IMG/VR virus record: IMGVR_UViG_3300045988_094081
Span: 38,033-102,032 of that record
Direction: 5' to 3' (one strand)
From: a virus
Length of the DNA: 64,000 nucleotides
The translations under genes and the position numbers were made by a program. This document shows positions 72 to 41,747 of the stretch, piece by piece; the first letter of the stretch is position 1; each line of letters begins with the position of its first letter. A model generated the notes under the pieces. It saw only the letters and a program-made list of their open reading frames with translations, was not told the DNA's origin and ran no database searches.

Positions 72-1898
72 ATGTACCGTGATGATAGAGGTAGGATGGT
101 TGTGAAAGATAAGTACGATTTTTATAGAAGCGATCAACCTTTTGGTGTTGGGGTTGTTACTAAGACTCTTGATACAATAGGATATCCTTTTGAAATAAGG
201 GATTATGTAGAAGATAAAATCCCATACGAAGAGAATGATCCAAACAAGATCCTGTTTAGATCCATTATTGATTCAAAGAATGATTTGGATAAAAGGATGG
301 AGATAAGATCCAAAAAACAAGGAGGGGATTCTTCTAAGCCGGAAATAGATTGGGATTTATTCAAATCCAAATATGAAAATATGAAGCGTGTGGGTAAGGG
401 TAAGCATCGTACTATGGACGTAGAAGGGATGAATATGATCTATGATGCTTTATATGATAAAGGTTTTAATCAACGCCAGATAGAAGCCGTACTTGGAAAT
501 ATTATTGAAGAATCTGGTGGAAACCCCTACGCTGTATCTGAGGATGGAAAATTTAGGGGACTTTTTCAAGAATATTACAAAAGATATCCGCCAAAAGAGT
601 TTGAAAGAGATAAAGAGAGATTTAAGAGCGATAAGCGTGGATATATCAACTATATGATAGACAGATTTTATGATCATGTTCAAGATGCTGGGAAGTATAG
701 TATAAAAGATACTAAATACAAAAAAGCTATTCATGCAGTAAACGAATTTATGTCAGAAGATCCAGATACGGATTATTCGTATCCACTTGTATATGCTTTT
801 GAAGCTCCATCAGATAAAGAAGGAACTTATAAAAACAGAAAGAGCGTATCAAATTTGATAAGTCAATCTTATGTTTTGGATAATGTTGATAAAAATGATA
901 ATACTATTGTTGATGCTATTCTTGGAATAAAAAATGATCTTGAGCTACAAGACTCTATTTCCACTACAAGAGGTGAAGCCTTTAAAGAAGCCAGGAAAAG
1001 AGGTCTTAAGGAATTTACATGGAATGGAAAGAGATACAATACCAACATCAAGAAGGAAGGTGGCGTAGTTGGCAAACAACGTGAGGCATATGAATACTTT
1101 ACTGATAAAAGAGGCATGTCTAAAATACAGGCTCTCGCCATCATAGGTAACCTCATGGCTGAATCCGGTCTTAAAGATGACATATATGGAGACAACAGAA
1201 CATCATACGGCATACAGCAATGGCATAATGAGCGCATGGATAAGTTGTTCAAGCACGCCAAAAAGAAAGGTCATTCTACACCCACATTCAAAGACCAACT
1301 TGAGTTCTTGGCTGACGAATACGAAGGGAAAACCGGATATTCTAATTTCTTATACACAAGAAAAGGAAAAGAAGGACCAGGGTATTACAACTACAGCCGG
1401 CAGGATTTTATGAACGCCGATAACCTTAAGGATGCTGTAGTAGCTTGGAACCAAGGAGCAGGACGTCCTCATAAGAGTGTTATAAGAAATGATGATCGTT
1501 ATGACTATGCTATGGAAGTTGCTAAAAATCTTGGTTTGGAAATTGAAGAAAATTCCGTATCTTTGTATGGTCAAATGGGATTCGGAGATGATGGAGAAAT
1601 AGCAGCATCGGTAACACTTCCAGAGGTAGAAGTGGCAGCCGCCCTCCCTAACCCGGAAGCTCAGTCCCAGGAGAGACAGTCCGAGGAAGAGAGATTCCGT
1701 ACATGGACTGAAACGTATGGTAAAGACATCGTAAATCATTTACTGACGTTAGACGGGAAAAAGGATGGTGATGACAGTGATTACAGCATGATGTATAGAC
1801 AGCATCAAAAAGAAAGCGAAGAGGATAAGAAAATGGCTTTGATTAATGCCGTGCTTCCCAATATACAACTTCGCATTAAAGGCGTCACTGATAATTAG
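72..1898 (+). CDS. Virion/tail-associated peptidoglycan hydrolase with two tandem lytic-transglycosylase/tail-lysozyme-like domains. The reading frame stays open to the window edge, so the gene may be 5' truncated.
   Basis: Two repeats of a G-N-(I/L)-x-x-E-S-G ... G(L/I)(F/Q)Q motif: GNIIEESGGNPYAV...GLFQ and IIGNLMAESGLKDD...YGIQQW. Glu-Ser is the catalytic dyad signature of SLT/tail-lysozyme folds. There is no in-frame stop upstream of Met72. Confidence 0.6.
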   Translation: MYRDDRGRMVVKDKYDFYRSDQPFGVGVVTKTLDTIGYPFEIRDYVEDKIPYEENDPNKILFRSIIDSKNDLDKRMEIRSKKQGGDSSKPEIDWDLFKSKYENMKRVGKGKHRTMDVEGMNMIYDALYDKGFNQRQIEAVLGNIIEESGGNPYAVSEDGKFRGLFQEYYKRYPPKEFERDKERFKSDKRGYINYMIDRFYDHVQDAGKYSIKDTKYKKAIHAVNEFMSEDPDTDYSYPLVYAFEAPSDKEGTYKNRKSVSNLISQSYVLDNVDKNDNTIVDAILGIKNDLELQDSISTTRGEAFKEARKRGLKEFTWNGKRYNTNIKKEGGVVGKQREAYEYFTDKRGMSKIQALAIIGNLMAESGLKDDIYGDNRTSYGIQQWHNERMDKLFKHAKKKGHSTPTFKDQLEFLADEYEGKTGYSNFLYTRKGKEGPGYYNYSRQDFMNADNLKDAVVAWNQGAGRPHKSVIRNDDRYDYAMEVAKNLGLEIEENSVSLYGQMGFGDDGEIAASVTLPEVEVAAALPNPEAQSQERQSEEERFRTWTETYGKDIVNHLLTLDGKKDGDDSDYSMMYRQHQKESEEDKKMALINAVLPNIQLRIKGVTDN

Positions 1899-1933: not shown

Positions 1934-2005
1934 AAGCCGGATTTGAGACTCGTTATACGGATACCGAAGGTTGAAGAACGATATCAAGATAATCCGGCTT
2001 TTTTG
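1934..2005 (+). terminator. Hairpin with a 10-bp perfect stem (AAGCCGGATT...AATCCGGCTT) followed by a T6 run, downstream of the lysozyme-domain gene
   Basis: Inverted repeat read directly in the sequence. The loop is long (~47 nt), so the terminator role is tentative. Confidence 0.45.
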
Positions 2006-2159
2006 TGCGATTTCGTGAAGGATGGAACTATCATCGCCTTGGTTGGACGGAACAGACCTACGTACTTTCACTGTCCTGACTGGCATGGACGCTCGTCTCG
2101 CCTACTCCCTGCCTAATTCTCCACTGGCTACCTAATATAACTATTAACGTCACTCCATC

Positions 2160-2332
2160 ACCTATCTCCTTCGTCGATAGGTTCAGTCGTTTTTAAATAT
2201 TATAAGTTCTTTCGCATCGTTCCCTTCGGTCACGATACTCAATCTTTTCACACAATTAGGTAAACAATACAATAGATGGAAAAAGTAATTTGTCAATCCG
2301 TTCACTCACTTAACTCCCTTCGGTCGTTAAGT
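2160..2332 (+). repeat. Three stem-loops with near-identical pyrimidine-rich loops (TCCTTCGTC / TCCCTTCGGTC / TCCCTTCGGTC) but different stem sequences
   Basis: SL-a at 2160-2182 (ACCTATC/GATAGGT), SL-b at 2216-2236 (ATCGT/ACGAT), SL-c at 2308-2332 (ACTTAAC/GTTAAGT). All sit in a 750-nt ORF-free region. Confidence 0.5.
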
Positions 2333-2555
2333 TCATTCACTGTAAACAATTATATGAATAAATGGTAAAGTATATAAAATAATATAAATAATATAATGAG
2401 TAAGATCATTGAAAATGGTCTTAATATTAAGGAAAACGGAGACTATTTATAGGCGTAGTTTTAATTCAAGATTTGTTGTCCCACCCCTGACGGTCAGCCG
2501 TTTACGTTTCGAGCCGTTCTTTTGTCTCTTATCCAAACCGTCATAAAATAAAAAA

Positions 2556-2610
2556 CCTTGTATCCTATTTCTCTCAAACCGGATACAAGGTCGTGCATTT
2601 TCTTCTTTTT
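2556..2610 (+). terminator. 10-bp perfect hairpin (CCTTGTATCC...GGATACAAGG) followed by a T-rich tract
   Basis: Inverted repeat followed by TTTTCTTCTTTTT, read directly. Confidence 0.45.
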
Positions 2611-2621
2611 ATGTAAAATCA

Positions 2622-2629
2622 TATATTTG
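2622..2629 (+). promoter_or_regulatory. Bacteroidota-type -7 promoter box TATATTTG (TAnnTTTG), 20 nt upstream of the ATG at 2650
   Basis: Exact match to TAnnTTTG. Spacing is appropriate for a sigma-ABfr promoter. Confidence 0.5.
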
Positions 2630-2649
2630 CACTAAACAATAAAAACAAT

Positions 2650-3669
2650 ATGGAGACAAAAATAACTGAAATAATAGATCCTCACAAGTTACACGACAAG
2701 CTCTTTAAGAAAGAGCAGGTCTCTCCAATAGAAGTTATATACAATAGCTTCAGCAACTTAGGGTATAATGTAGTACGCCGTCCAGCCGGTCAGTGTTTAG
2801 GCAATTTGAGATATTTTAATCTATTTTATGACAAACATACTCATCATTTCTATCAGAAAGACAGGAAGTTGAGATATTGCAGCAACTTTATCATATCTGA
2901 TTACTGGAAAGATAGAGTGCGATGTTTCGTCGTTTGGAACTTTGGCTTTGGAAGATTTTTTCCGTACAATGACTTTATTGAGGCTATGGTTTATGACTAT
3001 CTCCGATATGGAAGAAAGTCAGTTCCTTATCTTAAAAGCGTGCAAGAGGCTGAAGAAAAGTGTGTAAGGTTCTATATCCGGTCTCAGATAGATATGCTTC
3101 GTAAGGAAGGATATGCCGCCTATAGAGCTAAGTTTAAGGAAGAGCGTCCTCAGTATTTCATTGGAGACGATAGGACGGTGTTTAGATGCCTTGATAGCTC
3201 TTTAAAAAGAGAAGAGAAGATTGCCGCATGCGTAGCCCACAAAAGGGCTTTAAAAGAAGGGATAATGACTTCCTTTATCAATCATCTCAAGAAACATCCT
3301 ACCACCTTATATTCGTGGTTCTCGTCAGAGGTGGACGGTCAAGGAAAGAACAGGCTTTGTCTATCTGAAAAAGCCATTAATTATCTTAATAATAGACTGG
3401 TTCGTAATGGGTTAAAGGCTCTTTCTGCATCATATCTTTTTAGAACGTTTAGAAAAATGGTGAAGACCTTGTTCGGTTCCAATGTCAGGTCGTTTTTGAA
3501 TAGCTGTCTGATGTCTGTTTCAACAGAAGAGGTTTTAACCAAATCTATGAAGAAAATAGTTTCCAAGACGGTGCTGTTTTTGTACAGGAAAGCGCTTAAG
3601 AACTATCGTCGGGCATGTGGCCTTAAGTATGATCCTGATTCTGGTGGTTTGTCTGTCGTACATGATTGA
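2650..3669 (+). CDS. Hypothetical basic protein (339 aa)
   Basis: Long ORF with its own TAnnTTTG promoter. No recognisable motif. Confidence 0.6.
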   Translation: METKITEIIDPHKLHDKLFKKEQVSPIEVIYNSFSNLGYNVVRRPAGQCLGNLRYFNLFYDKHTHHFYQKDRKLRYCSNFIISDYWKDRVRCFVVWNFGFGRFFPYNDFIEAMVYDYLRYGRKSVPYLKSVQEAEEKCVRFYIRSQIDMLRKEGYAAYRAKFKEERPQYFIGDDRTVFRCLDSSLKREEKIAACVAHKRALKEGIMTSFINHLKKHPTTLYSWFSSEVDGQGKNRLCLSEKAINYLNNRLVRNGLKALSASYLFRTFRKMVKTLFGSNVRSFLNSCLMSVSTEEVLTKSMKKIVSKTVLFLYRKALKNYRRACGLKYDPDSGGLSVVHD

Positions 3670-3715
3670 TTTTTAAACGTATCCCATAACGTTGGATTTT
3701 CTCGTTCGTTTCTCT

Positions 3716-3737: not shown

Positions 3738-6581
3738 ATGAGATTACGAATCATAAAAAATCGTCCGATATTCGCTCCTGGCGGTAGTGTTCAGGATAAG
3801 AAACAGGATATTAATGTATCCTCTACTCAGTCTATTCTTGATTATGGAACGCCTGTTAATAAATGGGGTGAATCTGATATTCAGAATATATATATGCCTT
3901 CTGATGTGATTTTAGAAACAGAGGAGGGGGAGATAAATCCATTTAGTAGTATGCCTACATCCGATCCGTTTTTTGAAAACAATGATGCAGGATATGCAGG
4001 ATATCTCGCTGATAATAGGGGTATGGTTAAAAACGTAGAGAAATCAGTCGTTGATAATACAATGAATGTAGGTGGTGTTGATGCTGATTCCTCTAAAGAA
4101 AAACGTTCCCAAGATGGTAATCCTCTTGATCCTATGACTACCCCATATTATTCACCCGATCTAACCGGCAGAGCTCAAATGTTCGGTACAAGTCTTGGCC
4201 GGATAAGAGCCGGTAATAAGGTCGGTGCTAATGTGGCTCAAGCTGCCTTGTCTGGTGTTAGTTTAGGATTAGGTCTTACCCGTAATATCATGGGAGCTTC
4301 ATCTGCTGCGTATGCAGCCAGCAGAGACGAGCAGGCAGCGAGGGAAAAACTTGCCAAGGAGCGTCGTCAGCAATTCATCAAGTGGGAACGTGAAGGTGGT
4401 GGCGTGAATTTAGGTAACGGTCAGAAGATGGATACGTCTGATATGACCGGCGAATATATTTATCCTCTTCCCAAGTCTATGGAAGATGCTGCGAATGTAG
4501 AGATAGAGAAAGGCGAGTACGTGCTGACTCCTGACTCCGTAGGGCCTATGGAAGCCAAAGGGAACAGACATGAAAATGGTGGCACTCCGGTTGATTTGCC
4601 AGAGGCTTATATTGTTTCCGATTATCGTAAGATAGATGATGAGTTTGCCTCTTACGTTAGAGAAAATTATGGTATTAAGGCAACGTCAAAAGATACGTAT
4701 GCTACACTCCTTGATCGATATAAGAAGAAGATTGGTTTGTCTGATAAGTACGAAGATCAGGAGCGTGTATATAAGAGATTAGAGAAAAATGAAGATGTAA
4801 AAGACAAAAACACATCTAATCTTAATGCTTCTATTCTTTCCAAGTACGTCAATGAAAACCAGAAAGAGATAGACGAGCTTGAAGCACAATTTCGTTCTTT
4901 CGCTGAAATCGTTTATGGCAAACAGGAAGAATCTAAGCGTAACGAGAAGATGGATGCTTTTTTCAGGGATGGCGGGGTTGTTGATCTGAATCAGGTAAAG
5001 AAACAAGCTAAGGCTTTTAATATTGCAGAATCAGATGCTAAGAACTGGATATATGACGAGTATGTTAAGCAAACCAGGAAAATGGCTGAAGGTGGACCTA
5101 CTCAGAAGGAGCTGGAGGAACTTAGAAAGAATGCTATCGGCTACAATAAGCTTATCAATCAGTTATTTGGACGAACTCTTAATATGACTGTATCTGATGT
5201 TAGTGGTCGTGAGCAGATTCTTAATCCTGATTCCAGTGTCAATGCCAACCAGAATCTCCAACATAGAAGCAATTTAGGATACGGCAGGGTAAATGATAAG
5301 GCGGTATCTAATTTGCTCGACATAAACCGATGGGCTAACAAGTACAATACGGATGGTGATTTTGATACAGAAGGTTTCCAGAAAGGATACAACAGGCAAT
5401 TAAATGCATTGTGGGCGTTAGCTGATGTAGGTGCTATCACGAATGCTGATGCAGCCAAGAAATTCAGAGATGAGTACGGATTCTGGGGCCAGGATGCCGG
5501 AAGCTACGGAGGTAATCAGGCTTATAATTCATTTGCCGTAGATGATAAGTTTGGTCAGACAACAGCCACCCGTTCTTATTATGGATTGGACGTTGTTTCG
5601 GCAGAGCAAAAAAGATTGTTAAACGAAAAAGGGATAAAGAATTATGTTGACTTATTTGGTGATAAATCTGATGCCGCTAAGAAGATTCTGGGCTCCGATT
5701 ATAATAAGTTTGTTGCTTTAAGAGATAGTGGGTTAATGCCGGAAATAGACTTCGTTCTTGAGTCTGTTAAACCAGAAATGAAGCCTATTGAGGCCGGTCC
5801 CATAGCACCAGACCTTACACCGCCTAAGATTGGATCTCCTGGAAGGATAGAGGTAAAACCGAAAGCAAGTACGCCTGCGACTGCAACCGACACCGATACA
5901 GAGGAGGTGGTTGAAGACAACGGACCTAAAGGACAGGGCAGACCGGAGGCGTTCGGTCCTATCTTCCCGGAAATGCTAAGAACCCTTGACACTGGCTTGG
6001 AGATAGAAGGCCTGGAAAGACATCAGGCTCCGAGAATAGACCCGGTTCTTCAATCTGCTGATCAGTATATCAACGAGCTCAACCGTGCGACATCGGCTCA
6101 GTTAGACGCAGTAGGTGACGTGCCCGACTCCCAGCGGGCTGCTATTCTGGCTAATATGAACGCCATAGCTGGAAGCAATATAGCCAAGTATGTTAATGAA
6201 GTAAATTTCAATAACGCAAGGCAAATAAACGAAGCTGATAGGTTTAATGAAATGGCTTATGTTCAGACAGATGATAAGAACATAGCAGAAAGGCAACGTT
6301 ATGAATCTGGGTTGTTGAAAGCTATGGCTATAAGGGATGAAAATCTTGCTCGTTATTATGATAGTATAAACAGCGAGATACAGAATAAGTTTAATGTTCG
6401 TACATCGTTGAATACCATAGCTTCCATAGCCCCGAATATGAGAATGCTTCCAAGTGGTCAAATTATTTACGTTCAAGGCAATCAGGATGTGATGAATATG
6501 GGTGATTATTCTACACCTTATTTGAAGAGCTTGGAGGATGATGAAGAAGATAAATATAAAAAGAGAAGGAGAAATAGCTGA
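3738..6581 (+). CDS. Large virion-associated protein (about 947 aa). Function unknown; possibly a structural or ejection protein.
   Basis: The ORF-track start at 3723 is a GTG inside the -7 box, and the first ATG is at 3738. The stop overlaps the next gene's start (TGATG), indicating translational coupling. Confidence 0.65.
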   Translation: MRLRIIKNRPIFAPGGSVQDKKQDINVSSTQSILDYGTPVNKWGESDIQNIYMPSDVILETEEGEINPFSSMPTSDPFFENNDAGYAGYLADNRGMVKNVEKSVVDNTMNVGGVDADSSKEKRSQDGNPLDPMTTPYYSPDLTGRAQMFGTSLGRIRAGNKVGANVAQAALSGVSLGLGLTRNIMGASSAAYAASRDEQAAREKLAKERRQQFIKWEREGGGVNLGNGQKMDTSDMTGEYIYPLPKSMEDAANVEIEKGEYVLTPDSVGPMEAKGNRHENGGTPVDLPEAYIVSDYRKIDDEFASYVRENYGIKATSKDTYATLLDRYKKKIGLSDKYEDQERVYKRLEKNEDVKDKNTSNLNASILSKYVNENQKEIDELEAQFRSFAEIVYGKQEESKRNEKMDAFFRDGGVVDLNQVKKQAKAFNIAESDAKNWIYDEYVKQTRKMAEGGPTQKELEELRKNAIGYNKLINQLFGRTLNMTVSDVSGREQILNPDSSVNANQNLQHRSNLGYGRVNDKAVSNLLDINRWANKYNTDGDFDTEGFQKGYNRQLNALWALADVGAITNADAAKKFRDEYGFWGQDAGSYGGNQAYNSFAVDDKFGQTTATRSYYGLDVVSAEQKRLLNEKGIKNYVDLFGDKSDAAKKILGSDYNKFVALRDSGLMPEIDFVLESVKPEMKPIEAGPIAPDLTPPKIGSPGRIEVKPKASTPATATDTDTEEVVEDNGPKGQGRPEAFGPIFPEMLRTLDTGLEIEGLERHQAPRIDPVLQSADQYINELNRATSAQLDAVGDVPDSQRAAILANMNAIAGSNIAKYVNEVNFNNARQINEADRFNEMAYVQTDDKNIAERQRYESGLLKAMAIRDENLARYYDSINSEIQNKFNVRTSLNTIASIAPNMRMLPSGQIIYVQGNQDVMNMGDYSTPYLKSLEDDEEDKYKKRRRNS

Positions 6582-9607: not shown

Positions 9608-12600
9608 ATGGAAAATAAGGAACAGACATTGGTAGAGAAATCAGGTTTCTTACCATCTACTGGATTAAGAGGGTATAATGCCGTAGTTCCTACGCGATAT
9701 GAAGAAGAATCTTCTCTTATTGAGGGAGCAAAAAGAGAGATGGAGAGGATGAAAGTAGGTTCATATACTCCCCCGGTATCAGCCATAAATCCTGATGATG
9801 ATTCAGAAAAAGGGTCTGATATTAGCGGAATAGATACTTCTTTTGATGTAGACACATCTTTTTCTGGACTAAAATCGGCTCTGAATGGTGGAGATGATCC
9901 AAGAAAGAAGAAAGAGGAGTCTTATAATAAGTTAAATTCCATGATAAAATCTATTCAAGATAAATCAAGGAATACTTATTCTGGTAAACAAACGTCTTAT
10001 GGTGAGGTTATAGCTGGTAATCAACAGTCATCTGCTGTTGATTTTGGTGTATTTGGTAAAGGAAGAACTATTAAGTTAGATGAAGCATATGACTTTTTAT
10101 CCGATGGGAACATCGGTCTTGCAAAGTTTAAAAGTTATATGCCAGGAAGGGATAATGAAGATTATTACGGAAGAAGGCAAACTACTTGGAATAAGGCTGT
10201 TAATGGTATAGGGAAACTTGTCACAAAAACAGCATTATATGGTGTATCAGGAGTAGTAGGTATTATCCCGGCTGCGTATAATCTTATAAAGACTGGTACG
10301 TTATCTTCTGCATTTGACAATGATTTTACACGGACCATAAATGATATAGATGAAAGAATAAACCACTCTCTTCCTCATTATTATACAAGAGAAGAGCGTG
10401 ATATGGGATTTTTGCAGAGTCTTGGAACTGCAAATTTTATTTTTAATGATGTTATTGGAAATGGTCTATCGTTTACGACAGGAGCTATTCTGTCTGCCTA
10501 CCTTACAGGTGGGATGGGCGTGTCAAGTCTTGGAGCTGTTGGCGCTAAAGTAGGGATGAGAGTGGCCGGAAAGATGGCGGCGTCTAAGATTGCGGCAAGT
10601 GCTGTAAAATCAGCTTTTGGAGCGTATAGAGCAGGAGCGATGTACGGCAGGGCTATAGGTAATATGGCCAAGGTAGGAGTAAATACGTTCGTGGGCGCCG
10701 GCTGGGAGTCTGCCGTGGAGGCTCAGTCCTTCATGAAAGACTCTGAAAGTAAATACAAGGAATATTTTAAAAATATGTATGGTCGGAATCCTAATCAGTC
10801 TGAGATGGCTGAATTTAAGAGTTCTATTTCCGATACGGCAAATAGCATATTTTTAGCTAATATGGGTATAGTTGGATTATCCAATTATCTTCTTCTGGGA
10901 AAATATCTTGGAGTAGACACTGGTTTTGCTTCTAAATACATACCTGGATTAAAGGGTGTATCAAACACATATAGGGGATCAAAGAGTTTTGTAGATCGCT
11001 ATTTGTTTGGATTAGGGACTAAGAAGGTAGCGGGTGATGCTGGAAGATTACAGACGGTAAAAGCAAATTTATTCCAGAAATCCTTAGCTACTGTTTGGAA
11101 TGTATCTAAAAGACCCATATCTGAAGGTGTATGGGAGGAAGGCATGCAAGGTGTTGCTCAGCGCATGGGGGAAGATTTTATTAGATCAAGATATGATAAG
11201 ACGTATCTTGATGCTACGTCTTCTATAGTTGATTCTTTTTCTAAGGCCATAGCTGAACAATTTACAACCAAAGAAGGATTGAAAGAGATTGGCATAGGAG
11301 CCCTGATTGGTGGTTTATTTGGAGCCAGAAATGGTGCTTTTGGTTTATATGAAAGGAGAAATAAAGAGCGTACTATTAATACTGATGTTGAGAAATTTAA
11401 TAGTAATAATGCTTTTACTTCTCAATCTGTAAAAGACTCTATGCGAAATTTAGCCGAATTTAATGCTCAAATGAATGATCCTGAATCAGATTATTATTCT
11501 AAATTTGAATTATCTGACAGAATGGGAATGTTAGAGGATACGGCTAACAATTTCAGGTCAATGGTTAAAAGCCTTGACGAAAGTGAGTTGGCTTCTGAAA
11601 TGAAAGTAGATGAAGAAACTGTTAAAAAATACAAGGAAGATATTATAAAAGATTTTGATAAGAAGTTAGCCAATTATAAAAAAGCTTCTTCTTTTGCTGA
11701 GGCTATTACTGCTGAGACTTCATCCGATCTTTATCGATCTAATGTTGCTAATGCTGTGTTTAAGGGGTTGGATGCAGAGGATATAGCAATGGAAGCATCA
11801 AATGATATTGCTGATTATGTAAATGACAATAATTTGTTTGATGATATAAATACGTTTTATTCATTATCAAGTCAAGCTTTTGATACAGCTAATCAGTTAA
11901 GGGAATTGCGTAATGAGATCAATGATCTGAATGCTGAAATAGAGAGGTTGGCTACAACTCCGAGAAGAGTAGAGGATGGCAATGATACCGAAGCAGAGGC
12001 TATAAAACAAAAAACTATTAAATACGATAATCTTAATAAGGAATATAGAAGGTTGTCAGAAGATCTTCTTAGTAGTTATAAAGAAGTATTTTATTCTTTT
12101 GATCCTGGAGTATCAGCTCTTGAGTTGTTTAAATCCGAAACAATAACTGCTGAAGATATATTGAAGGCTTATGACTCTGTTGCTTCTTTAAGCACTTATA
12201 TCGAGAACAATAAGGGGAAGAAAGAAGCAGAGGATTTAAGAAAGATGGTGGTAAAATACCAGCAAGCTATTACCCAATATAAGGTTCTACGGTCATTCAT
12301 GAACTCCATGCAGGATAAGAAATTTATGAGACACGATTTTTCTTTATTCTCTAAGTTCTTAAATGATATAGTGTCATCCGATACCAAGCCTATAGAAAGT
12401 GATCGTTTTTATCAGAACCAGGAAGGAAACAATATCAGTTTAGATGAAAAAATAAATGAACTCCTGAATAATGGTGAAATAGATTCAGATGAGGCATTTA
12501 CAATGAAAGTATTTGGTCATTTAAATGATGGTATAATTCAGAAGCCGAAAGAGGATATATTGTCTGATTTTGATTATGAGTTGGCTATGGAAGATCTTTC

Positions 12601-15600
12601 GTCTGCACCTATAGAGGTTAGAGAACGTATAGTAGACAAGATATATACAGGTAATCAAGATCTTTTATCTCCAAGAGAGAAGGAGATATATGAAAAGTAT
12701 AAACAGGATATTGATGATTATATATCAAATCTTGGTGATAGTCCGGCTAAGATGATAAAAGATTTATCAGATAAAGTTAGGAGACTTACTGAGCCTCGAT
12801 CTGTGTATGAGGATAATAAAGCTATTATTGATATGGCTAAATCCAATTTGGAACCAGATCAAAGGAAGGAACTTGATGATGCTATTTCTTTGTATGTTGA
12901 TATAATGAACAGACGAGATAAAGGGGAGAAAGTTGACGAAGATAAGCTTGCCGATTCGGTATTTACCATAGAAGATCTTGGCCAGGTTGGAAACATCACG
13001 GATCTCCTTCCTTATATCGAACAGAACAGGATTATTGATAAAGGTCGTATTTCCGAATCTACGTTAAGTAATTTTGGGGAGGATGATGCTAATATAGATT
13101 CTCTTGTAAATGAATTAGACGAATCTGATAATACGCCGGGAGCCAATATAGATAGCGCCCAGAATCCAGAGACGTTGATGGTAAGAAGAATCTCCAACGA
13201 CGGCAATGAAAGGTATGAAATTGCCGGTCTTAGAGCCGATAAATTTATATCTTCTATAAAATCATTGGTTCCTATTCAAATAAGCTCTGAAACGAACGCT
13301 AATGGTACTAAAAGGTATTCTCTTAACATAGGTGGAGAAACGGCTACTATAATTGAACTTCCTTATCATGCGAGATGGTCTATAGATAAAGAATCGGCTC
13401 GTGTTCTTAACCGTTACACAGATGTGTCTATTCAGGACGTGGGTAATTCCTATTCTTTGGTTTATAAGCGTCTTGATTCAGATGAGTTGGTTTCGTACAG
13501 AACGGGTGTCGGATTCGGAGAGAATGAAGTAGATAAAATAGATCAGGAAGCATTATCTTCTTTGAAAAAAGGAGATAAGGTTAATCTCGAAATAGATGTA
13601 AATGATACCTATAATCAGTCTCTTTTTGCCGAATACAATGATGCTGTTCAGTCCGGCGATAAAAAAAGAATAGAATCTGCTGAAAATAAACTGGTATCCA
13701 ATATGGTTATTAAGGTTATGAGTGGGAATAGATTCGTTTCTGTTGTAAAAGCTGACACAGGGGGCATAGATGGTATAAGTAAGATAAGAAGAACGGCTTT
13801 CAACAAGTGGAAGAAGGACGCCGGCCGGTCGGCTACCATCAGCGTCGGCACGCATGTTGTTGCCCAGACCCTTCCCGGAAGACCGGTGTTTAACATGAAG
13901 GTGAACGGTCAAGGATATGGCCAGGTAGAAAATCTCCCTATTACCGAAAAAGGTGCTGAAAAAGTATCTGATGTCGGATATGTATTAAATGGCAAAGTCG
14001 TGCTTAAGAACGGCTCTAAATACACAGGCTTCCCATTTGCTTATTCTATATTAAATGACAAGGGGAATAATTACAAAAATGTAAGAGTTCCGGTAGTTGT
14101 CATCAAAGGCAAAAACGGTCTTAATTATCTTTTCCCGGTTAGTCTACGTTCTGTGGAATCAGAGGAAGGAAAGAAATGGATTTCTTTTATAGATATGCTG
14201 CTTGAATCCGGTGACTCTGAATTGTTACAGATGGGTCAAGATGACATACAAGATCTTAATGCGTATCTAACCAAGTTAGGTCTTGATCCAGCTTCGTATC
14301 AAGTATCGTATTTGAATCCTATTTCAGGTCTTAGAAAAGCTCGTGAGGCTATAGAAAAATTATCTACAGTTCCTGATGTTGTTAAGTGGGTAGAAGATGA
14401 AAGTAGGAGTGTGAAAGACATTGTGACGTCTGAAGTAGAATCTGGAATAGATTTCGAAGGTGAGATGTTTGTTGCTCCTAAGATCAGGATTCAGTTTGGT
14501 AAATCATCTTCCAGACCTAAATCACTTATAGAAGATGATCTCCCTTTCTCCGATGAGGGTAAGACCGTTACTTCCAAGGAAGATGTGGATATTTACGAAG
14601 AGGAAATGCCAGAGGAAGACCCTGTCCGGGGGACTCGGCCGGCGCCACCAGCTCAGCCGGCTCCTGCGGCACAAGCTACGCAGTCCTTACATGGCAAGAA
14701 GCGCACCTCCAGAAAAAACTTCTCTCTTATGTTAAACGAAATGGAATCTCATATAGAAAAAGAAGGGTTGCCGCCTTATGCTAATATTTTTGATTTTATA
14801 GCAAGGAAGATTGTAGGAGGTGATTTGAGATTTCTTCGTGAGAGAGGTAATCCTAAAAGTCTTAAGGAGGAAATGGGATTAGAACCTAAAGGAACAGTAG
14901 GTGATAAAATATCCACTCCTTCTAAAAAGGGAGGTAAGACCTTAGAAGAATATGTTTCTTGGCTTCGTTCTCAAACGGATCAGGTAGTAGCGGATTATGT
15001 TGGTCCAAGATCTGACGAACAAATTATATCAGAGTTGAAAAACTTTTTGAAATATATTAATTTTGTTCCAAGCAAGGCTTTGAATTATTCTCTTAGAATC
15101 AATGGCATGGATACCCTAAAAGAATATGGCACAAAAGAGGAAGTAGAAAAAATGGAATCTGACATCAATAGTTTGGTTTCTGAAGTTTTGCCTACGGTAG
15201 ATAATCAAACTGTAGAAGATGTTTCTACTGCAATAGAATCAAATAACTTGCCTGCCATATGGGAGCCCATGGAAAGCCTTGATATGACAAACGAGGAAAA
15301 AATAGAGTTTTTGAATAACGTAGCAGATTTCCTTAGCGGCATTCCAGAGTATGACGCTGTTGTGGAGTCTATAGAGTCAGAATCAGATAATATTTCAAAT
15401 AATGGAAAAGAAGGAAGTGCAGAAGGCGGTGCAGTACGCACTGAGGAAGATGGCGATAAAAAGGGAGATGGAGAAGGCAAAGGACAATCCAGAACAAATG
15501 TCGAAGTTAAAGGAAATGTCGAATTACCTGGATCTAAAGAAGGAAGAGTAGATAACTATAGGAAGAACGGAGATAAGTTCTCTGACATTGCTGAAGTTAC

Positions 15601-16327
15601 CTTATGGTTACTTAGAAGGGCTGCCGGCATAACCTCTATCCCGGAAGGAGAAGAGGTTTATGTAGAGGGAGATGAGGTTAATAGCATTATGACCGATATG
15701 GAATCAAGGTACGGGATAGACACCATCAACCACTCGCATACGACTAAGGCTATAAGGGATCTTAACGGCGTATCAGGTTATAAAGTAGAATACGGCTTAA
15801 CCTTTTTAACATACGATCCTTTTATTAGGATATCCAATCCAAGGAAAGAATCTAAGACTGCAAAAAACGAACCTCGTATATCCGAAGAGCCGCTTATTCA
15901 CATATCAAGGGTAACAACCCCTTATTTCCTGTACGGCGGTGATGAAGCATATACATCTGTTCCGGCTAAGGTAGAACCTATACCAGAGAAGATAATGGGT
16001 CGTAATGGCATTAAATTTGGTATGAGCGTAGTCGAGCTGACCAAATTAGGGTACAAAAAAGCTGGTGGAAACTGGATATACAAATTCTACATGAACTCAG
16101 GTGTTTATGATTTGTATAATATCAGTACCGGCGAAGCGTTTAGAGCAAAACCGGATCTTGGAGTTAAGATAAGTTCCAGCGCATTCATCCGTTCTTTATC
16201 TCAATCTGGTAGAAAAATACAAAATATGATGAGTAACATGAGCCAGGAAGAGATAGATAGGAATAAGAATCTTGTAGAAGGTTCTGATAATTCGGATTCG
16301 ATAAATGAGTTAAATAAGGAGTGTTGA
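9608..16327 (+). CDS. Giant protein (2239 aa), presumed virion/ejection cargo. No polymerase motif found.
   Basis: 6.7-kb uninterrupted ORF. Low-complexity acidic and Pro/Ala linker regions (PAPPAQPAPAAQA, EEDGDKKGDGEGKG). No DxDGD motif. Confidence 0.8.
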   Translation: MENKEQTLVEKSGFLPSTGLRGYNAVVPTRYEEESSLIEGAKREMERMKVGSYTPPVSAINPDDDSEKGSDISGIDTSFDVDTSFSGLKSALNGGDDPRKKKEESYNKLNSMIKSIQDKSRNTYSGKQTSYGEVIAGNQQSSAVDFGVFGKGRTIKLDEAYDFLSDGNIGLAKFKSYMPGRDNEDYYGRRQTTWNKAVNGIGKLVTKTALYGVSGVVGIIPAAYNLIKTGTLSSAFDNDFTRTINDIDERINHSLPHYYTREERDMGFLQSLGTANFIFNDVIGNGLSFTTGAILSAYLTGGMGVSSLGAVGAKVGMRVAGKMAASKIAASAVKSAFGAYRAGAMYGRAIGNMAKVGVNTFVGAGWESAVEAQSFMKDSESKYKEYFKNMYGRNPNQSEMAEFKSSISDTANSIFLANMGIVGLSNYLLLGKYLGVDTGFASKYIPGLKGVSNTYRGSKSFVDRYLFGLGTKKVAGDAGRLQTVKANLFQKSLATVWNVSKRPISEGVWEEGMQGVAQRMGEDFIRSRYDKTYLDATSSIVDSFSKAIAEQFTTKEGLKEIGIGALIGGLFGARNGAFGLYERRNKERTINTDVEKFNSNNAFTSQSVKDSMRNLAEFNAQMNDPESDYYSKFELSDRMGMLEDTANNFRSMVKSLDESELASEMKVDEETVKKYKEDIIKDFDKKLANYKKASSFAEAITAETSSDLYRSNVANAVFKGLDAEDIAMEASNDIADYVNDNNLFDDINTFYSLSSQAFDTANQLRELRNEINDLNAEIERLATTPRRVEDGNDTEAEAIKQKTIKYDNLNKEYRRLSEDLLSSYKEVFYSFDPGVSALELFKSETITAEDILKAYDSVASLSTYIENNKGKKEAEDLRKMVVKYQQAITQYKVLRSFMNSMQDKKFMRHDFSLFSKFLNDIVSSDTKPIESDRFYQNQEGNNISLDEKINELLNNGEIDSDEAFTMKVFGHLNDGIIQKPKEDILSDFDYELAMEDLSSAPIEVRERIVDKIYTGNQDLLSPREKEIYEKYKQDIDDYISNLGDSPAKMIKDLSDKVRRLTEPRSVYEDNKAIIDMAKSNLEPDQRKELDDAISLYVDIMNRRDKGEKVDEDKLADSVFTIEDLGQVGNITDLLPYIEQNRIIDKGRISESTLSNFGEDDANIDSLVNELDESDNTPGANIDSAQNPETLMVRRISNDGNERYEIAGLRADKFISSIKSLVPIQISSETNANGTKRYSLNIGGETATIIELPYHARWSIDKESARVLNRYTDVSIQDVGNSYSLVYKRLDSDELVSYRTGVGFGENEVDKIDQEALSSLKKGDKVNLEIDVNDTYNQSLFAEYNDAVQSGDKKRIESAENKLVSNMVIKVMSGNRFVSVVKADTGGIDGISKIRRTAFNKWKKDAGRSATISVGTHVVAQTLPGRPVFNMKVNGQGYGQVENLPITEKGAEKVSDVGYVLNGKVVLKNGSKYTGFPFAYSILNDKGNNYKNVRVPVVVIKGKNGLNYLFPVSLRSVESEEGKKWISFIDMLLESGDSELLQMGQDDIQDLNAYLTKLGLDPASYQVSYLNPISGLRKAREAIEKLSTVPDVVKWVEDESRSVKDIVTSEVESGIDFEGEMFVAPKIRIQFGKSSSRPKSLIEDDLPFSDEGKTVTSKEDVDIYEEEMPEEDPVRGTRPAPPAQPAPAAQATQSLHGKKRTSRKNFSLMLNEMESHIEKEGLPPYANIFDFIARKIVGGDLRFLRERGNPKSLKEEMGLEPKGTVGDKISTPSKKGGKTLEEYVSWLRSQTDQVVADYVGPRSDEQIISELKNFLKYINFVPSKALNYSLRINGMDTLKEYGTKEEVEKMESDINSLVSEVLPTVDNQTVEDVSTAIESNNLPAIWEPMESLDMTNEEKIEFLNNVADFLSGIPEYDAVVESIESESDNISNNGKEGSAEGGAVRTEEDGDKKGDGEGKGQSRTNVEVKGNVELPGSKEGRVDNYRKNGDKFSDIAEVTLWLLRRAAGITSIPEGEEVYVEGDEVNSIMTDMESRYGIDTINHSHTTKAIRDLNGVSGYKVEYGLTFLTYDPFIRISNPRKESKTAKNEPRISEEPLIHISRVTTPYFLYGGDEAYTSVPAKVEPIPEKIMGRNGIKFGMSVVELTKLGYKKAGGNWIYKFYMNSGVYDLYNISTGEAFRAKPDLGVKISSSAFIRSLSQSGRKIQNMMSNMSQEEIDRNKNLVEGSDNSDSINELNKEC

Positions 16328-26882: not shown

Positions 26883-29800
26883 ATGGTATCAACGTGTATT
26901 ATTAAAAGAGATAATAAAAAGAAAGTTGTTTCTGTCTCTACCAGATCAGGGGACAGGTCTATGTTATTCGATAAGATAGCATCTATTCCTCTTATGGAAA
27001 ATAGGGAACGGGCTACTACTGTTTTTAAAACCGTATTTTCTAATAAGTTCTTAAAGGCTTTTGGTGACTGGAGAAGGAATGTGCCTATCAACAAACAGGC
27101 TTACAATAAGGTAAAATCCAATATCGACCTTATTCCGGAAGCCTATAGAGAAAGGGTGCTGGATAAGGCTTCTAAGATGAGCAACCCTATTCTTGTGTCG
27201 AAATCAGATGCACCTTATGGGATTCAAGAATCAGGCTTTGGATTCTATAGCCAGGATCTGGGTGATAATATTATGTTGGTGGATGCTATGGTTCCGTCAG
27301 GTATTTCCATACCGGAAGGACCGGGAATAGACGCCGGCCAGTATCTACAAGATGCTATATCTTCAGACTTCACTCCCGTATCTATGGTACAGGATAAGGG
27401 TGTTGATTATATGGTCATAAAAGACGGTCTTAAGATATTTAGCCCAGAAGAGCTACCAGAGGCAGATTCTAATCCTGTGGGTGTAACGTATCAGACTGGA
27501 GAGCCTCGTTTGTTTTTCATGAACGATCGTAATCAATTATTTGAAGATTACGGAGAAGCTCTTCGCTCTGGAGGGAATGATATTAGAATAGGATTCTTAT
27601 CAGGCATCGTTCAAGAATCTACCGTGGATGGAGTGGCAGACATTACTTACAAGGCTGGAAAGTATGTTCTTAATAATCCCAAGTCTTTTATACCGGTCAT
27701 GACCGCTTCCGCTTCTACTTCTTTATCAACAAAAGGCGGTATAATTAACTACCTTATAAAGAAAGGTCTTTTGTCCGGATCCAAGATATTCGATCCGGAA
27801 ACAAGAGGCTATTATATTACAGGAGAAGGACATACAGGACAAATTAGACTTTTCAATTCAGCATTATCCTACACTGAGCTCCGTAATCATTTTGGTTCTG
27901 ATGTTTCCATGAATGATCAAGGCATGATAACCATAAATTCATTGGATAATAGTAAGGTAACTATGAGACTCGCCACCGGAGGAACGGAAAGGGTTAGCAG
28001 GGGGCAGATAAAGAACGATCTCAAGTCAGGAAGATACAATGAATTGGACGCCAAGTACGATCATTTTGATGCGCTTGTAGTTTCATTCATATTAGAAGAC
28101 AACGATCTTTATGCTGATACTAAAGCTAAGATCGTATCGGATTATAGCCAAGAGGAACGTAATCAACGAAATTCTATTGTTGAGATACTGAAAACTCTTG
28201 GCGTTAGTGTCGTTGGCATGACCGATTATATAGAGAAGTACCAAACTAAATACGGACACGAACCTTCTGCTAAAGCATTGGCGGATATTGCCAATAACGT
28301 AATAGCAGTCGGTGAAGATGCTACTTTGTCTGACTTAGTAGAAGAAACAGCCCACTTCCTTGTAGAGGCGTACAGAGATCAGAATGCTGTTGAGGCTGTT
28401 CTGCAAGATGTAGAAGGTACGGAAGAGTGGAACCAATATGCAGGTCAGTATTATAATACATACGGTAAGGTATATGAAGGGGCTGAGCTTGATAATGCTG
28501 TTAGGAGAGAAATTCTTGGAAAGATCCTCGCCAGGGAGATGCAGACCGGAACAGCACAGGCGCCGGTAGAGCCTACCTCCTTCCTGGGGCGCGTCCGGCA
28601 GCTTCTCTCTGGAATTGTAAACTGGCTTAAATCAGCTTTATCAACCCAAAGACAGGATTTGAATAACGTTATTAAAAATATTCGTGATCTTGCTATTACC
28701 GACATAGATAAAGGATTTGATACTTCTCTTTTGAAGGATAATGACTTTACATTATACTCCCTTTCTTCTATGAACAAGAACAAGTTTCTTGAGTCTAAGA
28801 TCCGGGCATTGAGAAAAACGTTAAGAGACTTACGTCAGATAAGCTCTGATAGGGCTGTAACTACGTCTATGACCCTTGCCCAGCTTAAGACCATAGAAGA
28901 TAAGATAAATAAGGTAGAGACCGAAATAGACAAGAATGAGATGGCGGCCGCCATGAACAGCATGATCTCCACAGCCGAAGCTCAGGTTAGATACTTAAGC
29001 AACGTAGTAAATACTATCCTTCATGGTGATACCAAAGACGGTAAGCTTCATTTCAATACCAATGATCGAAAGAACGTAGATATTATCAACAATCAGGTTC
29101 TTCCGATCATGAACGATCTTCGAGGATATATCCGTAACAGAAGTACCGAATTTGATGAGCGTGAAAAGCAGGATTATACAAATAGGATCAATACCGTCAT
29201 TGCCGACATCAACGGTATTCAGTCTGATATTAAATCAGTACAAGATCTTGATGAAAGTACGTTGCTTGACAAGTTAATGAACGAACTTCATGTGCCGGCA
29301 GATAAGGTAAAGAGAGTAAAAGAGTTCTTTGATAAGGTTCAACACGATGTTTCTTGGATAAGTAGGTGGTTCGGTATATTAGAGCATTCTTCCAGCCCGT
29401 TCAACAACGCTCTTGGAGCTATGATTGCCAAAGACAATTACAATGCGATGGTGAATGCCCAGCCCGCTATATCCGATTTTCTGGCATATGCGAAAAAGCA
29501 TGGTTTTAACAAATCTGAATTTGAAAAACTGCTTCAGAAAGTAGACGGCAAAACTTCTAATTACCTTCGTAGTGCCCTTGATATGGCTAAATACGATCGT
29601 AATAAGAAGCTGGCGCAGATGCGAGCGTTTGCGACCGCCATGAACATAGAGATATCAGAAGAAGAAATCAATGATGTGGTTGACAATAACCGTAATTACG
29701 TATTTAAAAGAGAAGTAGTTGACAAGGACGGAAATACGGTTACTGAGAACGCTAAATTTAAACCGTCGTCCGATAGGGTTAATACCGATATTTTTACTAT

Positions 29801-37898: not shown

Positions 37899-38207
37899 TT
37901 ATTCTACTTTTTTGATTTCGCTCAAATCGTCTTCATACACCAAATAAGATCCTCTTCCAGGTCTTCCTTCTTTATTAGCTTTCTGGATTGTAAATATAAC
38001 TGTTCCAGTATTCGTGATTTGCACGTTCTTAAAGAAACCAACAAGAGGCTCTTTCGAACGTTTGTAAAGAACACTCACTTTATCTCCCTTCTTTAACCCA
38101 TAAACAGAATCGAAATATTCCTTTTTAATTCTTTCAATATTACTTCTATGTTTGTTCATTGCATCAAGCTCGTCGTCTAACAGTTGATTCATTTGTTCTT
38201 TTGTCAT
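37899..38207 (-). CDS. Hypothetical protein (102 aa)
   Basis: ORF. Confidence 0.5.
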   Translation of the reverse strand: MTKEQMNQLLDDELDAMNKHRSNIERIKKEYFDSVYGLKKGDKVSVLYKRSKEPLVGFFKNVQITNTGTVIFTIQKANKEGRPGRGSYLVYEDDLSEIKKVE

Positions 38208-41380: not shown

Positions 41381-41747
41381 CGCAATCTATTTTACTATTT
41401 TTTGAAAGTTCTATTATCGCCTCTTTCAACATCTCCCTTGCTTTATCTTCGTTATCTTCAAGCAAGCATACACTGCACGATATGCCCATACGATCCCCAT
41501 AAGCCTCGGCATTACCTAATGTGAATGCGCAGCAGTAATCATAATCCATGTTTTTTGCTACGGCAATAAACTGATTATCTTCTATCAGTACAGCATATTC
41601 AGCATCAGTTTCACACATGATAATGGCTTTATCTTTTTTTATAGACAATACCTTGTTTCTGAAAAGTCCGTTATAAATCCATAGTTCCTTTCCTGCATTT
41701 TTATAAAACGTAGCCATATCTTCCTTGGTTGTAACTTCTTTTTTCAT
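41370..41747 (-). CDS. Hypothetical protein (125 aa)
   Basis: ORF. Confidence 0.45.
   Translation of the reverse strand: MKKEVTTKEDMATFYKNAGKELWIYNGLFRNKVLSIKKDKAIIMCETDAEYAVLIEDNQFIAVAKNMDYDYCCAFTLGNAEAYGDRMGISCSVCLLEDNEDKAREMLKEAIIELSKNSKIDCDGL

Follow-up and report, generated by a model that had tools for sequence, protein, structure and literature searches.

In boxB/nut-type arrays the helix covaries, while the purine-rich apex with its sheared G·A pair and the adjacent linear boxes are conserved. In the P22 sar/ant and ColE2 RNAI/rep systems a regulator or rep gene is controlled by an antisense RNA. Mini-hairpins capped by a GNA triloop mark ssiA of the IncQ plasmid RSF1010, where the apex is the heptamer CCGAAGG (a GAA triloop closed by C-G), the complementary-strand origin of G4 and the promoters of phage N4 (PMC13037366; PMC8567376). 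The RSF1010 elements ssiA and ssiB are strand-specific hairpins of ~21-25 nt recognised by the RepB' primase (PMC13037366; PMC8567376), and the N4 early promoters are three tandem hairpins on the same strand with 5-7 bp stems and GNA (GGA/GAA) triloops (PMC13037366; PMC4496689). Here we analysed a stretch of viral DNA of 64,000 nucleotides (positions 38,033 to 102,032 of the IMG/VR record IMGVR_UViG_3300045988_094081; referred to as the window), in which three tandem hairpins are located upstream of an orphan gene. We report that the hairpin fold belongs to the minus strand, that it covaries among related phages and that it is linked to the orphan gene in a cassette. The reading that we favour, with a probability of roughly 40%, is that the hairpins are protein-binding RNA modules of a minus-strand non-coding transcript.

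Over its first 6.9 kb the window matches, at 96% identity, csAssE-Sib (OR575929, 151 kb, human gut), an epsilon crAss-like phage (PMC11054128). The hairpins are situated in a 751-nt gap between a tail-lysozyme gene (positions 72-1898, plus strand) and an unannotated gene encoding a protein of 339 amino acids (aa; positions 2650-3669, plus strand), after which follow genes for large virion proteins (952, 1007 and 2239 aa). We compared 150 related loci; 80 are near-identical IMG/VR contigs and the rest were obtained via homologues of the neighbouring 339-aa protein at 82%, ~60% and 44% identity. The region 1899-2649 holds only short open reading frames (ORFs), in keeping with the initial annotation, which had described it as ORF-free. 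Moreover, close relatives vary by a 2-nt insertion or deletion (indel) within the first hairpin and by gain or loss of entire units, and the region is therefore non-coding; the same indel and unit duplications/deletions, together with the covariation, rule out a coding or recoded ORF. The number of hairpin units varies between one and four in otherwise near-identical genomes through clean whole-unit duplication or deletion (variants: L055, positions 4436-4539; L097 and L112, duplicated unit; L113 and L137, deleted units). As a whole, the non-coding region (~740 nt) is strongly conserved and hardly varies within the species-level cluster, its AT-rich part included.

The three inverted repeats and their central motifs are present exactly where they had initially been placed. 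They are listed below first as read on the plus strand (H1 to H3) and then as the units, with flanks, that we define on the minus strand (U1 to U3):

2160-2182, plus-strand reading, H1: arms 2160-2166 (ACCTATC) and 2176-2182 (GATAGGT) around 2167-2175 (TCCTTCGTC).
2216-2236, plus-strand reading, H2: arms 2216-2220 and 2232-2236 around 2221-2231 (TCCCTTCGGTC).
2308-2332, plus-strand reading, H3: arms 2308-2314 and 2326-2332 around 2315-2325 (TCCCTTCGGTC).
2150-2187, minus strand, U1: stem 2182-2176 / 2166-2160, core GA-C-GAA-G-GA (2175-2167).
2204-2243, minus strand, U2: stem GUAUCGU/ACGAUGC (2238-2232 / 2220-2214), core GA-CC-GAA-GG-GA (2231-2221), 3' flank GAAAGAAC.
2298-2337, minus strand, U3: stem ACUUAAC/GUUAAGU (2332-2326 / 2314-2308), core GA-CC-GAA-GG-GA (2325-2315), 5' flank CAGUGAAUGA, 3' flank GAGUGAACGG.

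On the minus strand each unit consists, in order, of one arm of a 7-bp stem, GA, one to two base pairs, a GNA triloop (GAA, GUA or GGA), the partner bases, a second GA and the other arm, where the two GA dinucleotides make up a tandem G·A/A·G internal loop beneath a mini-hairpin. For H2 a 5-bp stem had been given; the minus strand instead gives 7 bp, one of which is a U·G pair. U1 is a short version that, relative to most relatives (GACTGAAGGGA), has one inner base pair deleted. The core heptamer CCGAAGG is present in U2 and U3, and CCGTAGG, CCGGAGG and GCGAAGC occur as variants in relatives. In the relative with 44% protein identity, 2 bp plus the GNA loop have been exchanged for 1 bp plus a GNRA tetraloop (a C-GUGA-G apex). 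Other clades have 'ACCTCAC...GATTCGGT' units, which on the minus strand comprise 3 bp, a second tandem G·A pair, A-U, a bulged U and C-G, and in which the outer 3 bp covary (ACC/GGT, AUC/GAU, GCC/GGC). Single-stranded motifs flanking the hairpins are also conserved, with GUGAA 3-9 nt upstream and GARNGAAC directly downstream of each hairpin.

The array is unique in the genome. Positions 2221 and 2315 are the sole occurrences of the exact 11-mer TCCCTTCGGTC in the window. When a covariance model describing one unit was run over the window and 150 kb of the csAssE-Sib genome, the three units scored E = 6e-9 to 6e-15 (U1, 42 bits, E = 6.5e-9; U2, 56 bits; U3, 63 bits, E = 5.6e-15), and nothing else had a value under E = 1. 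There are no terminator-like sites at the three units on either strand; since the units lack U-tracts, they are not terminators.

Covariation was assessed for 27 distinct units out of 43 loci; the alignment combines the three paralogous units and was itself fitted to the model. Paired cells amount to 98.3%, compared with 34-46% when the partner columns are slid, and seven of the nine pairs have changes on both sides. The central positions 3/9 and 4/8 covary as well (CC/GG, GC/GC, AC/GT, CT/AG). Because of this, and because the 9-nt version in H1 of the window has dropped one whole inner pair, the '11-nt loop' is structured. Thus, of the initial description of a conserved loop on covarying stems, the stems stand, while the 'loop' contains covarying pairs. 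The proposed selection on structure and on a conserved central motif agrees with our data, with covariation in relatives down to 44% protein identity, and conservation in relatives, which had been named as a test, is also seen in that the hairpins are kept at 82%, ~60% and 44% protein identity.

The hairpin fold is that of the minus strand. Read on this strand, the 27 units have 216 Watson-Crick cells and 13 G·U cells, and no cell would be G·U on the plus strand; every apparent plus-strand mismatch is C·A, i.e., G·U on the minus strand, and several of the wobbles are the majority allele. Folded as RNA, a unit reaches -9 to -12 kcal/mol on the minus strand versus -2 to -7 kcal/mol on the plus strand (U2, -11.8 versus -5.0; U3, -10.8 versus -6.8 kcal/mol). 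With DNA parameters the hairpins reach ~-5 kcal/mol and the strand asymmetry is almost gone. G is locally enriched on the minus strand (GC skew down to -0.37), as it is on the sense strands of this genome.

The other elements of the locus, most of which belong to the cassette, are as follows:

2650-3669, plus strand: orphan gene for the 339-aa protein, which always accompanies the non-coding region.
2622-2629, plus strand: Bacteroidetes-type -7 box of the 339-aa gene (TATATTTG).
2657-2664, minus strand: P_as, a Bacteroidetes-type -7 box (TATTTTTG) overlapping codons 3-5 of the 339-aa gene.
2545-2650, minus strand: predicted antisense small RNA (sRNA) of ~105 nt, starting just past the -7 box and ending at T1.
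2540-2591, minus strand: T1, an intrinsic terminator with hairpin 2591-2581 / 2565-2555 and U-run 2554-2540.
2469-2497, no strand assigned: conserved box (AGATnnnTTGTCCCACCnCTGA-NNN-TCAG), the most conserved sequence box of the region.
2338-2468, no strand assigned: AT-rich spacer that separates the hairpin array from the conserved box, near-invariant in the species-level cluster.
2071-2132, C-rich on plus and G-rich on minus: conserved block (CTGTCCTG ... CTCGCCTAC..CCTGCC...TCCACTGGCTAC) with negative local GC skew.
1934-2005, plus strand: terminator of the tail-lysozyme gene (AAGCCGGATT ... AATCCGGCTT and a T-run), the left boundary.

Sequence signals of an antisense promoter and a terminator are present at the start of the 339-aa gene. 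The plus-strand match TAnnTTTGC occurs in 150 of the 150 loci scanned. In 124 of these the minus strand has a canonical TAnnTTTG, displaced by 26-45 nt to the right of this promoter box; three representatives of the remaining loci were checked and each has a -7 box with one mismatch. On the plus strand an A-run precedes the hairpin 2555-2591, which on the minus strand gives a stem followed by UUUUUUAUUUU. The T1 stem extends inward to a GNRA tetraloop (GAGA in the window; GCGA or GUGA in relatives). Among nine diverse loci 8 of its 14 pairs are compensatory, with several G·U pairs, and T1 is retained even at homologue loci with 23-24% protein identity. Between promoter and terminator, an inverted repeat (2632-2628 / 2597-2593) would form a stem of the sRNA, and its arms covary between clades (GTGCA/TGCAC; TTTGGAGC/GCTCCAAA; TTGGGCA/TGCCCAA; AGCAATT/AATTGCT). 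These signals predict a conserved antisense sRNA of ~105 nt, its ends placed from the promoter and terminator positions, that would overlap the 5' end of the mRNA.

The family of the 339-aa protein is tiny, with 22 clusters among 1.84 billion representatives. The protein has no Pfam, PHROG, NCBIfam or PDB sequence match and no plasmid homologue; among GenBank phages only csAssE-Sib encodes it. In the structure prediction the C-terminal half is confident and gives weak winged-helix or helix-turn-helix fold matches, which include the ORC/Cdc6 winged-helix domain and RTP, and on this modelling the gene product is a probable DNA-binding protein. The conserved box at 2469-2497 contains a CTGA/TCAG palindrome, is kept across all clusters (L154 among them) and is positioned ~125-150 nt upstream of the promoter of the 339-aa gene; from its sequence it looks like a candidate double-stranded DNA binding site for a dimeric protein.

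Homologues with ~60% identity have the same non-coding region upstream, at another genomic site (site B; the site of the window is site A), and share the G-rich block, the units, the AT-rich spacer, the conserved box, the hairpin 2555-2591 and the promoter inverted repeat. The site-B cassette consists of ~760 nt of non-coding sequence and the gene, and is located between a DUF6808 gene and a gene for a 292-aa structural protein ~36 kb upstream (L082-L085 and L112-L150, gene at 6001 or 3001). Several contigs have both cassette copies, and in csAssE-Sib site B is empty (41,636-41,720, L151). Since the same region and gene are found together at a second site, the two behave as a single unit, either duplicated or moved. 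We saw no target duplication or terminal repeat at the borders of the site-B insertion, and mobile-element ends were dropped as a candidate for this reason. A more distant homologue of the 339-aa protein (24% identity; L157, 3905-5001) has a 1.1-kb upstream gap between genes for proteins of 2395 and 2153 aa; this gap has a G-rich, GTAGG/GGGG-rich block on the strand of the gene, opposite to the window, and is without GA/GNA hairpin units.

Compared with RSF1010 ssiA and ssiB, the units are alike in being strand-specific hairpins of this size class with the CCGAAGG apex and in having single-stranded flanks, which are functionally important in RSF1010 and conserved here. In both, an AT-rich region and the gene of a replicon-specific protein adjoin (RepB', 323 aa; here, 339 aa). 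In contrast, ssiA and ssiB form an inverted pair on opposite strands, whereas the units here are all on the minus strand and differ in the tandem G·A internal loop and in the flank motifs. The 339-aa protein shows neither a RepB'-like AEP primase signature nor a RepB' fold match.

The N4 early promoters resemble the array in number, strand, stem length and triloops, and also in the conservation of loop and flanks around stems of variable sequence and in that the phage injects an RNA polymerase. Unlike the N4 hairpins, which have a short continuous stem and a 3-nt loop, the units here are longer and are interrupted by the tandem G·A and a mini-helix of 1-2 bp. Moreover, the virion RNA polymerase of csAssE-Sib resembles phi14:2 gp66, of the two-barrel type, and not the N4 gp50 family (PMC11054128); the two-barrel enzyme of crAss-like phages is unrelated to the T7-like enzyme of N4. 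The array is found in the middle of a block of structural genes, at one or two cassette sites, and not at a known leading genome end. With respect to such an enzyme in the window, the motif DFDxD has no literal match in its large ORFs, including the giant ORFs 9608-16327 (2239 aa) and 26883-33305 (2140 aa), for which the PHROGs labels are 'unknown function' and 'virion structural protein'. For the initial suggestion of an N4-like promoter, the bottom-strand GNA triloops speak in its favour, and the single locus, the phi14:2-type polymerase and the longer, interrupted hairpins speak against it.

As in boxB-type arrays, the helix covaries freely while the purine-rich apex, with its sheared G·A pair, and the flanks are conserved, a likeness that would be consistent with recognition by one protein. 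Unlike these arrays, the units have no genes downstream on the minus strand that could be antiterminated, no cognate RNA-binding protein and no Rfam family. The right-hand part of the cassette recalls sar/ant and RNAI/rep by analogy, with face-to-face promoters and a short antisense RNA with stem-loops and a terminator that would lie over the start of the gene; there is no sequence homology to these systems, and the array beyond the sRNA terminator has no counterpart there. The combination of a tandem-GA/GNA hairpin array, an orphan gene and a predicted sRNA in one cassette appears to be undescribed. The csAssE-Sib paper makes no mention of hairpins, non-coding or intergenic regions or promoters (PMC11054128), and literature searches with the core sequence returned unrelated primers only.

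According to the reading that we favour, the hairpins would be repeated docking sites for one protein, either the product of the 339-aa gene or a host factor, and the folded molecule would be RNA, transcribed and protein-bound. The 339-aa gene with its host-type promoter, the antisense sRNA and the elements of the minus-strand array may together form a self-contained regulatory cassette, in which transcription past the sRNA would traverse the conserved box, the AT-rich spacer, the hairpin array and the G-rich block in this order. RNA is preferred because of the stability of the hairpins as RNA, the wobbles that are majority alleles, the GNA/GNRA apices, the signals for the host RNA polymerase just upstream and the sense-like composition. 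There is no host-type promoter directly upstream of the array, and such an RNA would thus need read-through of the sRNA terminator or a non-host polymerase. A precedent is phi14:2, where abundant early long non-coding RNAs originate from long intergenic regions (bioRxiv 10.1101/2020.03.07.982082); in these regions we detected no similar units. The initial suggestion of repeated protein-binding sites is retained insofar as the hairpins are probably recognition sites on single-stranded nucleic acid, while the strand and the anatomy, i.e., the plus-strand loops UCCCUUCGGUC, are revised.

Several observations weigh against an RNA. The minus strand has no canonical host promoter between T1 and the first hairpin, and T1 looks strong; transcription of the array is therefore a hypothesis. 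No candidate for the 3' end of the RNA is convincing. The near-invariance of the AT-rich spacer is more typical of a DNA element, and single-stranded DNA hairpins, too, accommodate G·T wobbles, tandem G·A pairs and GNA loops well (PMC13037366). The 339-aa protein has no recognisable RNA-binding domain. The Rfam 15 search of the whole window gave 0 matches at gathering score, with only chance-level hits (E >= 1) in 1850-2700, where values up to E = 10 were admitted. Alifold found no supported helices in the block at 2071-2132, the sequence of which is conserved between site-A and site-B cassettes, and for the 553-nt region on the minus strand the global fold is not significant (z = -0.66 versus shuffles). 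One large structured RNA is rejected since the global fold is no better than that of the shuffles and the G-rich block has no alifold-supported helices. Folding of the region had initially been proposed as a check, and it yielded the hairpins, stronger on the minus strand, and no significant global fold; the alternatives offered at the same time, processing sites or a structured non-coding RNA, are possible, the lack of a global fold and of an Rfam family counting against them. Scans for tRNA and tmRNA genes were negative.

The main rival, which we consider possible though doubtful, is that the hairpins act in single-stranded DNA of the bottom strand as initiation signals. In one version they are priming sites of an accessory unidirectional origin, with an initiator gene, a binding box, an AT-rich unwinding region and ssi-type hairpins (cf. 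RSF1010 oriV); in the other the virion RNA polymerase would use them as hairpins for entry or as promoters and transcribe rightwards into the 339-aa gene and the genes for the large virion proteins. That GNA-capped mini-hairpins mark ssiA, with the same heptamer, as well as the G4 origin and the N4 promoters is in favour of such a role, and so is the origin-like layout of a palindromic box, a near-invariant AT-rich stretch and hairpins. Canonical host promoters are absent from both strands of the region 2008-2545, and terminators facing inwards enclose it, which insulates it from transcription by the host. The virion RNA polymerase of phi14:2 works well on single-stranded and poorly on double-stranded DNA, and no early-promoter motif was found in that phage. 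Furthermore, the neighbouring protein has the weak winged-helix matches and its gene is opposed by a predicted antisense RNA, as is often the case for plasmid rep genes, and the csAssE-Sib authors speculate on an episomal lifestyle (PMC11054128).

Against the DNA reading, the hairpins are marginal as DNA (~-5 kcal/mol, nearest-neighbour parameters), and AT-rich 7-bp stems around an 11-nt centre of non-Watson-Crick character are poor candidates for extrusion from a duplex. Wobbles as majority alleles are less expected in DNA hairpins. Contrary to the ssiA/ssiB pair, the units are all on one strand, and as judged from the skew a rightward fork would make the bottom strand the leading-strand template and not the exposed lagging-strand one. 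There is no inflection of the GC skew at the site, and the 339-aa protein has no primase or Rep signature, no plasmid homologue and, in the family alignment, no invariant acidic residue. Finally, the motif occurs at one locus only and not upstream of the blocks of early genes.

A wider version of this idea, in which the cassette is an autonomous module of epsilon crAss-like phages that duplicates within the genome, the hairpins being single-stranded DNA initiation signals, the 339-aa protein a site-specific opener and the sRNA a means of setting its dose, is in our view unlikely. If it were true, the hairpins would be the first defined recognition elements for a crAss-type virion RNA polymerase or for priming at an accessory origin. 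With regard to origins more generally, the extremes of the GC skew are at ~17.4 and 110.8 kb, away from the cassette, which dismisses the cassette as the main replication origin. Of the features of an iteron origin, the AT-rich region and a gene with weak winged-helix-like matches are present, while the repeats are non-identical and behave as hairpins, homology to known Rep proteins or plasmids is lacking and the GC skew does not shift. No identical iterons were found in the region, and the ATGAATAA 'iterons' in its AT-rich part were dismissed because the copies vary from one to four and are inconsistent between clades.

We regard as rather improbable that the hairpins are palindromes of the repetitive extragenic palindromic (REP) or miniature inverted-repeat transposable element (MITE) type, duplicated locally and with a generic role as a barrier to exonuclease or read-through or as a recombination hotspot; their conservation would then reflect the youth of the lineage and not a specific ligand. 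The duplication and deletion of units among close relatives (1-4 units) speaks for this explanation, and multi-copy repeats of the form stem-GACCGNAGGGA-stem do exist in unrelated bacteria and archaea. A scan for two cores separated by 55-85 nt, with each prokaryotic species represented by one genome, matched at least 120 loci. Many of the matches are collagen-like coding repeats (GACCGCAGGGA, Gly-Pro-Gln-Gly), and a substantial subset are true hairpin repeats, present in multiple copies, in which a stem directly adjoins this core. Of the 305 distinct units of the scan, 58 have a directly adjoining stem of 4 bp or longer, versus 2 in a shifted control. Repeats of the type GTCATTTC-GACCGNAGGGA-GAAATC are found in cyanobacteria, Bacteroidota, gammaproteobacteria and Anaerolineales. 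The often tandem repeats are:

GTCAT(T/G)(T/C)C-GACCGNAGGGA-G(A/G)AAT(C), in L167, L168, L170, L176, L204, L213, L217, L220, L228, L237 and L240.

The hosts of the GTCAT-type repeats are Anabaena, Polaribacter, Flavobacterium, Lewinellaceae, a gammaproteobacterial metagenome-assembled genome and Anaerolineales. In two haloarchaeal loci (L169, L221) the GA / CC-GNA-GG / GA core is surrounded by other stems. No Rfam family covers the bacterial core repeats, and our data suggest that the GA-CCGNAGG-GA core is a more general, uncatalogued structural module.

The array in the phage differs from REP or MITE elements in that it comprises three copies at one locus, with stems that differ between the units and are each upheld by compensatory changes, and the genome has no copies elsewhere. 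The single-stranded flank motifs are conserved, the units are no terminators, and the array is kept in both paralogous cassettes (~60% protein identity) and in the relative at 44%. More generally, the units are not CRISPR (clustered regularly interspaced short palindromic repeats), iterons or REP elements because the repeats are not identical; for a CRISPR array or an RNA anti-CRISPR repeat mimic, the stems differ between units and the spacers themselves are conserved between clades.

The weakest explanation, stem-loops of a plus-strand RNA with an unpaired loop UCC(C)UUC(G)GUC that would be protein-bound or processed within a read-through or 5'-untranslated-region transcript, is very improbable: although the outer stems also form on the plus strand and CUUCGG recalls the context of a UNCG tetraloop (with UACG and UCCG among the variants), the non-Watson-Crick stem cells are all C·A there and G·U on the minus strand (13 versus 0), the covariation of 3/9 and 4/8 breaks the C(UUCG)G register (GC/GC variant), a common H1 variant has UUCA, which is not UNCG, the hairpins are weaker by 4-7 kcal/mol, and a strong plus-strand terminator precedes the region, which has no plus-strand promoter inside.

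Two further candidates were rejected. The stem of U3 resembles the RYYYAAC/GTTRRRY of integron attC sites, a likeness that we take for coincidence as it is not shared by U1 and U2. A phage gene related to Ro60 (Rsr), with tRNA-Tyr and tRNA-Lys ahead of it, is encoded shortly before the start of the window (L001, 5004-6973; csAssE-Sib, 72,756-74,725). Ro60 orthologues usually have a Y-RNA partner encoded nearby. The idea of a Y-RNA that this gene raises found no support in the hairpin region; the neighbourhood of the Ro60 gene itself was not scanned.

At the left boundary of the region, the terminator of the tail-lysozyme gene is unusually long and composite, with a 10-bp outer stem, an interior of 47 nt and a T-run; it is conserved in the relative with 82% identity (L086). 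A CCGAAGG mini-hairpin is also present inside it, on the plus strand at 1964-1970. Individual structural genes are each preceded, at a distance of a few tens of nucleotides from the start codon, by a separate TAnnTTTG box of the Bacteroidetes type (window, 2622-2629 and ~3700-3712; L151, 41,700-41,710). The host RNA polymerase has been reported to transcribe the middle and late genes of crAss-like phages, with which these per-gene boxes agree.

Epsilon crAss-like phages are abundant and uncultured, and the locus described here is a compact, strongly conserved and experimentally testable object. Any of the readings, if right, would add a new regulatory part to what is known of crAss-like phages, be it a protein-binding non-coding RNA, a hairpin signal for a promoter or for priming, or an accessory origin.

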